Below are positions 32,515 to 34,979 of a DNA stretch of 64,000 nt, in pieces (position 1 is the first letter of the stretch; each line of letters begins with the position of its first letter). The stretch covers positions 868,001 through 932,000 of the forward strand of contig CP145415.1 in NCBI GenBank assembly GCA_036867785.1. Reading direction: 5' to 3'. Made by a program: the position numbers and the translations under genes. This DNA is from Plasmodiophora brassicae (taxonomy: Eukaryota). The notes under the pieces were generated by a model. That model was not told the origin of the DNA. It saw only the letters and a program-made list of their open reading frames with translations, and ran no database searches.

Positions 32515-34979
32515 ATGTCGTCGGCGTATCACTGCCGGCTGATTGCGTCGCGGAATGCAGCGCCGATTGCGCCTACGACGGTCTGCGTCGACGACTGCGC
32601 GTACACGTTCGACGGCGTGGCGGTCTGTGTCCCGGCGCGCGCTCCTCTGCCGGAGCGCGTCCGGATCCGGTTCGCCTCCGTCGATCAGGTCGCCGTTTTC
32701 ACCAGATCGCCCGCGTTTGACGCCTGGGATATGGTCCATTGCACCAAGGTCCAGCAGATAACCGATTGGATGTATTCCAAGTTGCTGGGCATGGGTCTGG
32801 ACGACGTCGCCCCCATGTGCCGGATTGTCCCATCCATGAAGACCGGCCGCGATTTCGCACTGTTCCCGTTGTTCGTGAACGGCCATCGGTATTTGTCGCC
32901 AGAACAGGTTGAACGAGCTCTACGTTTCGATCAGAGGCCACCCACCCTACTCGCTCGTCTCTCTGCCCTGCTGAACGTACTGCCATCTGCGTTAATCCGC
33001 TCGTGCCGAGGTTCTGAAACGATCCCTGTGTAGATAATGGCGTTTGAAGAGGCGTCGTTAATGCTGGCGGGCACCATTGTGCACTGCACGCAGACCTCGA
33101 ACTTCTACCGTGTTGATGCGATCTGCTCTGACCTGACCGTTGCGAACCTGACCTTCCTGAAAAACGTCGCGAATACGCGGCAGGTGGTCGCCAAACATTG
33201 CCATACGTCGTCTGGGGAAGACGTTCTCCAAGCACCTCGATTTCTCGTGCCTGAGCTGTGCCACGATATGCGCGTCAAAGCTGACGTGATGAACTACGCG
33301 TTCGCATTCCTGCATTTAGGTAACGACGTGAATCGTTATTCTGGTGTCGGTTATGTATTCACACCTTCATTCCAGTTCCCCATTTAAGGCATCTCTGTCG
33401 TGTCGAGGCGTTGCTGCACACGCTGAAAATCGGCTCGTCCTACACCGAGTCGTTTCGGCGGGCGCTGATTCACAGGTCCGTCAAGCTGTCTTCGTGTTAC
33501 GTTCGGCTTCACAACTACAGTGAGCGTATGTCCCCGTGCGTGCCAGATGAGTTCGATTGCTGATCATGTACCACAGTCCGGCAGCGTTGCGATTTTGTGT
33601 GGGACACCAGTGGCCCTGTCTCATTCGAATGGTCACGATTCGTTGACGAGCCCGTGTCCACTGAAGACCCGAACAGCAACCCGCAGGGCCTGGAATTCTA
33701 CCGTCAGTCGTTTCTGGGCAGCGCTGTTCTTGGGTTCGTCCGCCTGGCGCTTGTCGTCTTGAAGGGTTCTTATTTGTGGTCCAGGCTCGTGGTCAACTCT
33801 CATTTGTTCGCGCTGTTCTCCCACGATGACGAAGGCGAACTGTCCATCAAACGTTCTCGTCTGCTAACTTTCAAGCAGTTCATCCGGTGGGCGAAGGACC
33901 TGGACCTCAATCGTGCTATTCTATCTTCCTCACCAGGTCTGAATTGCAGCGTGCTCCTGCATATGGTGCTAACGCGGCACATAGGCTTTCTGGATATCCT
34001 TCCCGACTCGGTCGCCGCAAGTGCCGTTACAACCGTGTTCGGCTGCGTGTTCTCATGCATTGGACTGGCCGAATGTCGAAGGATGCTGTCGATGCTGCTG
34101 TTCAGCGGCTCTGAGCTGGAGCAGAATGCCTGGAATGCCGCGCGTATCGACGAACGTACAGTAACTGCTGACCTTCAGCCCCTGTCTCCTAGTCGGCGGT
34201 AACATGCTCACCTGACTGCAATTTGTGAGGGAGTACTGATCGTCGCAACACAGACAACAGCTTGCTGAGCTAAAGGAGAAACTGTCGATCGAGTTCTTGC
34301 AAGATCATCTTCTCGATCAGGCTCTGGGCGGTTGGCACCAACAACGTCTCGAGCTTCTAGGCGATTCCGTTCTGCAGTTAATCGTATCTCAGCTGCTGAT
34401 TGACGGGTTCCCTGAGCTGGAAGAGCGCACCTTGACGCTGGTCCGGTCAGGACTCGTCAAGAACGAACATCTCCACAGAATAGCACTCGATCATGGCCTG
34501 CTCGAGTACCTTGTGCGTAAGGCGAACTCGGACCAGATTAAGCTGTGAGCGTTGTGCGTTGTTACCTGGAAGTTGGTGTCGCTAACGTTGCTGTCAGTAT
34601 TGCAGACGCCGTTGAAGCCATCATTGGAGCGGTATATCTGGGATCCAACCTTGCACGTTGTCGGAGCTTCATCTGCCAGCATATCTTCAAGGACATCGAT
34701 GACATACTGGATCAGGATGACATTGACTTGTTGTGCCCGAAAAACCAGCTTCAGCAGCACTTCCAAGCCCTGACTCGTGAAAGCAACGCCGCTCCCGTGT
34801 ACGATGTCGTGGAGAGAACCGGCCCAGATCATGACGTATCGTTCAAGGTGCACGTTCTCTTCAAGAACGAACTTATTGGGGAGGGTTCTGGATCGTCGAA
34901 GCGCCAAGCTGAGAAGCGAGCGGCCATGTCTGCTCTGAATCGGATACGGGCACATGTACCAGTAAATACCACATCGTGA
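32515..34979 (+). CDS. Drosha-like class II RNase III (degenerate RIIIa, intact RIIIb, C-terminal dsRBD), multi-exon
   Basis: Spliced RVKADVMNYAFAFLHLVPHLRHL...RALIHRS...NYIRQ; RIIIa YRQSFLGSAVLG...HLFALF..EGEL; RIIIb QQRLELLGDSVLQL...TLTLVRSGLVKN...IADAVEAIIGAVY; dsRBD PKNQLQQ...GPDHDVSFKVHV...GEGSGSSKRQAEKRAA. Confidence 0.88.

Follow-up and report, generated by a model that had tools for sequence, protein, structure and literature searches.

PbDRL of Plasmodiophora brassicae: a Drosha-type RNase III with an almost surely dead RNase IIIa domain beside an intact RNase IIIb domain

Introduction

By the textbook account, making a small interfering RNA (siRNA) duplex takes a pair of RNase III active sites, and the question raised here is how an enzyme with a single working site could make them. 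The gene in question lies in a stretch of 64,000 nucleotides of the Plasmodiophora brassicae genome (assembly GCA_036867785.1, contig CP145415.1, positions 868,001 to 932,000 of the forward strand; hereafter the window) and encodes PbDRL, a protein with two RNase III domains of which the first (RIIIa) is almost surely catalytically dead and the second (RIIIb) is intact. A 2026 paper presents PbDRL as the sole small-RNA maker of this major crop pathogen and calls its mechanism not fully understood (PMC13547706). Its earliest mention is in PMC4471660, which names a Spongospora protein, SSUBm.9115, in the legend of Fig. S9. An earlier note on this DNA had predicted a nickase of double-stranded RNA (dsRNA), selected for single-strand cleavage.

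Results

The gene is the published PbDRL (Pb06299 / PBRA_001228), since all four of the PbDRL primers tested from Table S10 of PMC13547706 find one site each in it. Its spliced frame is identical to the database protein P0001, named Plasmodiophora brassicae ribonuclease III. The two RIIIa motifs, YRQSFLGSAV (33699-33728) and AASAVTTVFG (34014-34043), lie in one reading frame. In an alignment with a profile built from 75 RNase IIIs that have a single RIII domain, the metal-binding positions of RIIIa are S344, S348, S415 and T418, all Ser or Thr as the earlier note had read them, and the accessory N and K positions are F340 and S411. RIIIb, with QRLELLGDSV (34342-34371) and IADAVEAIIG (34599-34628), has E507, D511, D574 and E577 together with K570 and Q503, and its intactness had likewise been read correctly. 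The consensus used in that reading needs one amendment: the loss of the motifs stands, but the third position, given as D, is usually N in the RIIIa of Drosha (PMC4791657). Drosha has the metal ligands E, D, N/D and E in both RIII domains, and the RIIIa of PbDRL has none of them; the cleavage centre of PbDRL combines an RIII domain that is intact with one that lacks metal ligands.

Splicing or alignment that restores the acids was looked for and none was found. All seven introns, short and bounded by GT..AG, are skipped in each of three RNA-type contig sets from three studies (the runs are labelled 'RNA?' or unlabelled, none being recorded as RNA) and retained in the one DNA-type run, and no E..GD or D/N..E motif occurs in any frame of 33501-34260; the fixed splice form and the motif-free frames exclude an alternative splice form or frame as a source of RIIIa acids. 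The frame is intact and spliced, and RIIIa is invariant across all four runs, an agreement that rules out an assembly error or a strain-specific lesion there. The sole other letter difference over 2901 bases is A34302C (Q490H, at the start of RIIIb), seen in two of the four. Three of the four metal-ligand changes require at least two base changes per codon and therefore reflect old divergence and not sequencing error. The predicted local distance difference test score is 88-95 across the RIIIa catalytic helices of the model, in agreement with the preserved fold that had been claimed, and strongly conserved columns are retained at 10 of 22 in RIIIa versus 19 of 23 in RIIIb. From its sequence, RIIIa is almost surely dead as a catalyst, with its fold kept.

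Relatives were screened among 62 proteins of at least 300 amino acids, 50 of them with two RNase III matches, and 37 were scored after exclusion of P0002, later cluster members and four tandem proteins combining RIII with a double-stranded RNA-binding domain (dsRBD). All four RIIIb metal ligands are kept in every one of these 37 two-domain proteins. Those of RIIIa are kept in 35, the exceptions being PbDRL itself (P0001) and P0127, and the loss in PbDRL is therefore not chance. Both RIII domains are intact in another rhizarian, Paramarteilia canceri (P0043), and the loss therefore does not extend to rhizarians at large.

P0127 has 749 amino acids, is 28% identical to PbDRL, and carries G/S in the first RIIIa motif and E/D in the second. 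On 20 of the 37 rows the two proteins are joined at 98/95, at 97/92 without the RIIIa motif columns, and at 85/87 on RIIIb and dsRBD alone. They are not joined in the 37-row tree. Both are long branches, and either taken alone falls beside P0011 (14 rows; the second of these trees was a quick one only). Uniquely shared columns number 11 for this pair versus 8-9 for the next pairs. Taken together, these results suggest that P0127 is likely an orthologue of PbDRL and that the two likely share the RIIIa loss by descent. In trees without a Dicer outgroup PbDRL sits on a long branch that falls outside the group starred as animal Drosha, and the nearest cluster in the ESM Atlas is Drosha-like at 0.91. 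Close orthologues were not recovered: word-index protein searches returned only PbDRL or bacterial RNase IIIs, metagenome scans gave none, and none stood among the best 150 of 13,366 representative matches. The same losses, for which the earlier note had wanted orthologues checked, are found in one distant relative.

A second change accompanies the dead site. The RIIIb helix of Drosha with H1170-E1171-G1172 assists cleavage by RIIIa (PMC8616936), and cleavage by the RIIIb of DICER1 is assisted by a residue of its RIIIa (PMC6695490). All 35 intact two-domain relatives keep the EG of this RIIIb helix, as do 73 of the 75 homodimeric RNase IIIs with a single domain; among the scored two-domain proteins it is changed only in PbDRL (E531-R532) and in P0127 (SN), both of which retain the EG of RIIIa despite its dead site. 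S372 of PbDRL is taken here to be the equivalent of DICER1 S1344. Judged by the alignments, the parts that would serve the RIIIa cut are gone from both domains and those that would serve the RIIIb cut are kept on both. This mirror pattern favours a dead RIIIa pairing in cis with RIIIb, against a pair of RIIIb domains. Shared as it is with P0127, the helix loss argues for an old and settled one-site enzyme and not for recent decay. The four substitutions on which the earlier note had relied do not by themselves demonstrate selection for nicking, RIIIa having drifted more widely than RIIIb.

The PbDRL gene and one-site RNase III centres are known already, and the changed RIIIb helix beside a dead RIIIa, with its RIIIa counterpart kept, is new. 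A literature search, with subscription journals mostly outside its coverage, gave no earlier mention of the RIIIa loss in PbDRL and no RNase III with one site acting as the only maker of siRNA. The words 'IIIa', 'active site', 'nick' and 'mutant' occur zero times in the main text of PMC13547706, and 'catalytic' zero times in its supplements; these counts cover text only, and its Fig. S11B carries an RIIIa alignment. The loss of RIIIa catalytic residues is unmentioned in the passage on PbDRL and the Fig. S9 legend of PMC4471660.

Of the small RNAs of P. brassicae, 90.3% are 21 nucleotides long, and in vivo the siRNAs are phased at 21 nucleotides with a 2-nucleotide offset between strands; purified PbDRL with Mg2+ is reported to degrade EGFP dsRNA to mainly 21-nucleotide products, and silencing of PbDRL lowers miR002 (PMC13547706). 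Six of the 234 listed microRNAs (miRNAs), three validated by northern blot and three picked for short precursors, were placed, each at one genome position. miR002, miR041 and miR011 are on 3p arms and miR045, miR005 and miR028 on 5p arms. At L015:1392-1539, miR002 begins exactly 21 nucleotides from the loop-side end of an inverted repeat of 60 bp and 97% complementarity, a spacing consistent with long hairpins being diced in phase.

Discussion

The reading we lean towards, at a little less than an even chance, is that PbDRL, a Drosha-type RNase III, has a single working site and cuts the two strands in two binding events. One binding event would cut one strand: in human Drosha carrying E1045Q in RIIIa only 5p-strand cleavage remains (PMC8616936), and RNase III heterodimers engineered to have one site make nicks (PMC3867540). 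To that extent the single-strand cleavage proposed in the earlier note is supported, but not as the end function. One cut per binding event and both strands reported cut in register make two binding events the simplest reconciliation. RIIIa would act as a non-catalytic scaffold still paired in cis with RIIIb, which would nick one strand first. PbDRL would then bind again after a turn of 180 degrees on the RIIIa/RIIIb dyad, so that the first nick lies in the pocket of the dead RIIIa, and RIIIb would cut the second strand; the dyad geometry would set this cut 2 nucleotides away and yield a 21-nucleotide duplex with 2-nucleotide 3' overhangs. One may speculate that the small, uncharged Ser/Thr pocket tolerates or recognises the 5' phosphate of the nick, and the 21-nucleotide ruler is presumably the platform/PAZ-like region. 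In favour of this reading, both strands are cut in vivo, the pure protein gives 21-nucleotide products, and miR002, which is sensitive to knock-down, is a 3p product. The fuller version, a natural one-site dicer that nicks, turns and nicks again, with RIIIa as a nick sensor in an old design shared with P0127, is possible and is put forward with more reserve. If one site does make both cuts, this would be a new way to dice; if it does not, an unknown partner nuclease or a preparation artefact is implied. The finding also bears on the processing of RNA interference-based constructs for clubroot control.

Several points weigh against two binding events. The two-step model has been reached by exclusion, and unregistered nicks might also yield the loss of the long dsRNA band and 21-nucleotide reads. 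The protein assayed in vitro came from Hi5 cells by one affinity step, with no catalytic mutant (PMC13547706), and these cells have an siRNA pathway of their own, with a mode of 20 and a median of 21 nucleotides (PMC5844692); a Hi5 contaminant as the source of the 21-nucleotide products is disfavoured. One-site Drosha mutants halt at the nicked product on pri-miRNAs (PMC8616936), and turning round is therefore not automatic. The Bump-like insertion in RIIIa could hinder the turned pose on a continuous duplex, and the C8, C12 and C18 RNase III genes (Table 1) could supply the second cut. Moreover, the distance from stem base to inferred 5p cut, about 20-21 in three of the six hairpins and varying with the definition of the base, is not constant across them, and a constant 21-nucleotide ruler from the stem base was dropped on this account.

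Among the alternatives the one that survives best, though unlikely, is that PbDRL nicks one strand and that the C12, C8 or C18 RNase III, or an Argonaute, cuts the opposite strand in vivo; it accommodates the nickase of the earlier note as one of two enzymes acting in a pathway. The three further RNase III loci all keep the second and fourth acids, and C18 has lost the first Glu and kept the other three. No second two-domain RNase III was found among the five candidates scored (four RNase III loci, the other three single-domain), and a Dicer_dimer domain search gave no match. The C12 gene has two or three dsRBD-like repeats after its RNase III domain (weak Pfam and Atlas matches; Atlas 0.86), and that domain is Mini-III-like by its consensus. 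A fixed 2-nucleotide offset is characteristic of a single RNase III dyad and speaks against such a division of labour. It is possible from its domains that the C12 gene encodes a second dicing enzyme or partner, and that it is one of the 'three-dsRBD' proteins of PMC13547706. Precedents for nicking are Mimivirus R343, a one-site tandem RNase III that acts as a hairpin nickase (PMC4402537), and the one-site heterodimers of trypanosome editing (PMC9508840), and the in vitro data in the available text of PMC13547706 are without strand mapping or mutants. However, purified PbDRL alone is reported there to remove long dsRNA with a 21-nucleotide peak, and in yeast two-hybrid it does not bind two dsRBD proteins, which may or may not be products of the C8, C12 and C18 loci.

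It is improbable that two PbDRL molecules swap domains or displace RIIIa so as to pair RIIIb with RIIIb and cleave both strands simultaneously, in the manner of bacterial RNase III and budding-yeast Dicer. Such a dimer would account directly for the 2-nucleotide offset and for the activity seen with pure PbDRL. DICER1 RIIIb on its own forms homodimers in crystals (PMC6695490), and non-canonical Dicers work as homodimers (PMC7827160). Yet the cut of each partner would need the EG helix of RIIIb, which is the one lost, while RIIIa keeps its EG and is folded with high confidence in the single-chain model.

We regard as distinctly improbable either a dedicated nickase of the 5' arm, whose purpose would be to make nicked hairpins or single-strand products, or the neutral decay of a domain that is dispensable. 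A 5p single-cleavage mode does occur naturally in Drosha (PMC8616936), and the few conserved columns retained in RIIIa would suit decay. Half of the placed miRNAs are on 3p arms, the knock-down-sensitive miR002 among them, and a nickase of the 5' arm in fixed orientation alone therefore cannot make them; the 21-nucleotide products in vitro and the opposite-strand siRNAs in register (PMC13547706) likewise argue against nicking as the end function, and the intact, spliced frame and invariant RIIIa speak against decay. Least credible is that RIIIa still cuts by means of displaced acids (E339, D406, D410) or residues lent by RIIIb: acidic residues do lie near both motifs and the siRNAs of P. brassicae look canonical (PMC13547706), but each of the six site positions has been substituted, among them that of the Glu binding both metals, the alignment with P0127 shows no conservation of the nearby acids, and the supporting RIIIb helix is changed too.

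With two binding events as the favoured reading, PbDRL may be set beside known systems. Animal Drosha (class 2/3 RNase III; PDB 5B16, 6V5B, 9ASM) is its best sequence match (E 2.5e-37) and its top fold match (Foldseek E 9.3e-23; VIA Z 33.6, rmsd, the root-mean-square deviation, 9.3 over 542 residues), although the alignment from which the model was built consisted mostly of Drosha and so tilts the fold matches towards it. Both have a platform-like N-terminus, two RIII domains, one dsRBD and an insertion in RIIIa, and the N-terminus of PbDRL scores 23.9 bits against a profile of 21 Drosha N-terminal regions (shuffled maximum 2.2). Drosha works with two active sites, depends on DGCR8/Pasha and does no more than crop pri-miRNA, about 11 bp from the basal junction. 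PbDRL, by contrast, is half as large, with one site, and reportedly makes mature 21-nucleotide RNAs unaided. Canonical Dicer has a helicase, DUF283 and a true PAZ. Searches of the PbDRL protein found neither helicase nor DUF283, and Pfam PAZ is below cut-off (exon 2, E 0.0014, 19.1 of 28.8 bits; whole protein, 12.7 bits). The Dicer of Giardia has both sites active. Like PbDRL, Giardia Dicer (2FFL) and budding-yeast Dcr1 are small, helicase-less and give products of fixed length, but Dcr1 is a homodimer of one active domain (PMC7827160). Mimivirus R343 and Megavirus Mg559 resemble PbDRL in having two RIII domains in a single chain, one of them metal-ligand-free, and are proposed, and partly shown, to nick hairpins; in these the second domain is dead and the role is mRNA 3'-end formation (PMC4402537), whereas in PbDRL the first is dead, on a Drosha scaffold, and the enzyme is linked to the making of siRNA and miRNA. 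The trypanosome editosome pairs KREN1-3 with KREPB6-8, an active and a non-catalytic RIII forming a one-cut centre as in PbDRL, but from two polypeptides, for mitochondrial editing, and with the nick as end product (PMC9508840, PMC3867540). Scattered protist Dicer-like proteins with changed motifs have also been described (PMC4791657).

Gene structure and surroundings

The features of the gene and of the related loci are collected in Table 1. A Bump motif is claimed for PbDRL in PMC13547706. The open reading frame of TANGO2 stands head-to-head with PbDRL only 60 nucleotides from its start codon, which therefore leaves no space for a helicase.

Table 1. Features of PbDRL, its neighbours and related loci (positions in the window unless another locus is named)
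Feature	Position	Strand	Remarks
PbDRL gene, 8 exons, 697 amino acids	32515..34979	+	platform/PAZ-like region, RIIIa, RIIIb, dsRBD
Introns 1-7	32977-33033, 33320-33375, 33526-33576, 33734-33784, 33937-33984, 34199-34253, 34545-34597	+	
N-terminal Drosha-type platform, PAZ-like part, connector helix, residues 5-265	32527..33422	+	model confidence moderate to low
RNase IIIa domain, about residues 268-443	33429..34106	+	almost surely catalytically dead, fold kept
RIIIa insertion, residues 285-335	33480-33683	+	position of Drosha Bump helix; low model confidence
RIIIa signature motif	33696..33722	+	F340/S344/S348 at N/E/D positions
RIIIa cross-support helix start, E368-G369..S372	33831..33845	+	kept, facing RIIIb site
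RIIIa second motif	34008..34031	+	S411/S415/T418 at K, D/N, E positions
RNase IIIb domain, about residues 473-603	34194..34694	+	intact
RIIIb catalytic residues E507, D511	34351-34365	+	
RIIIb helix matching Drosha H1170-E1171-G1172	34420..34437	+	reads E530-E531-R532, without the invariant Gly; alignment to Drosha
RIIIb catalytic residues K570, D574, E577	34540-34616	+	spanning intron 7
C-terminal dsRBD, residues 618-686	34737..34943	+	Pfam dsrm E 8.1e-16
TANGO2/NRDE gene	31640-32455	-	head-to-head neighbour of PbDRL
Kinesin-like gene with helix-hairpin-helix motif	34491-37900	-	tail-to-tail with PbDRL
C12 RNase III gene, motifs EVEALIGD and GTAVEAIIG	L014:2100-4455, G000:C12	-	single RNase III domain
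C8 short paralogue of C12 RNase III domain	L002:1225-1806, G000:C8	-	same motifs
C18 RNase III gene with introns, motifs TLAFVGDA and ADALEAFLG	L012:3549-5267, G000:C18	-	weak dsRBD
Two tandem Argonaute genes	L005, L006 (G000:C12:592510-596413)		match PbAGO1 and PbAGO2 description in PMC13547706

The last open frame of the kinesin-like gene overlaps the 3' end of PbDRL, and the RNA contig X2 continues beyond 32300 across the TANGO2 gene. At 33090-33185 the DNA-type run X15 shows a local rise in depth together with short contigs, inverted or chimeric, and with a back-joint within exon 2 of PbDRL; this is probably a library artefact.
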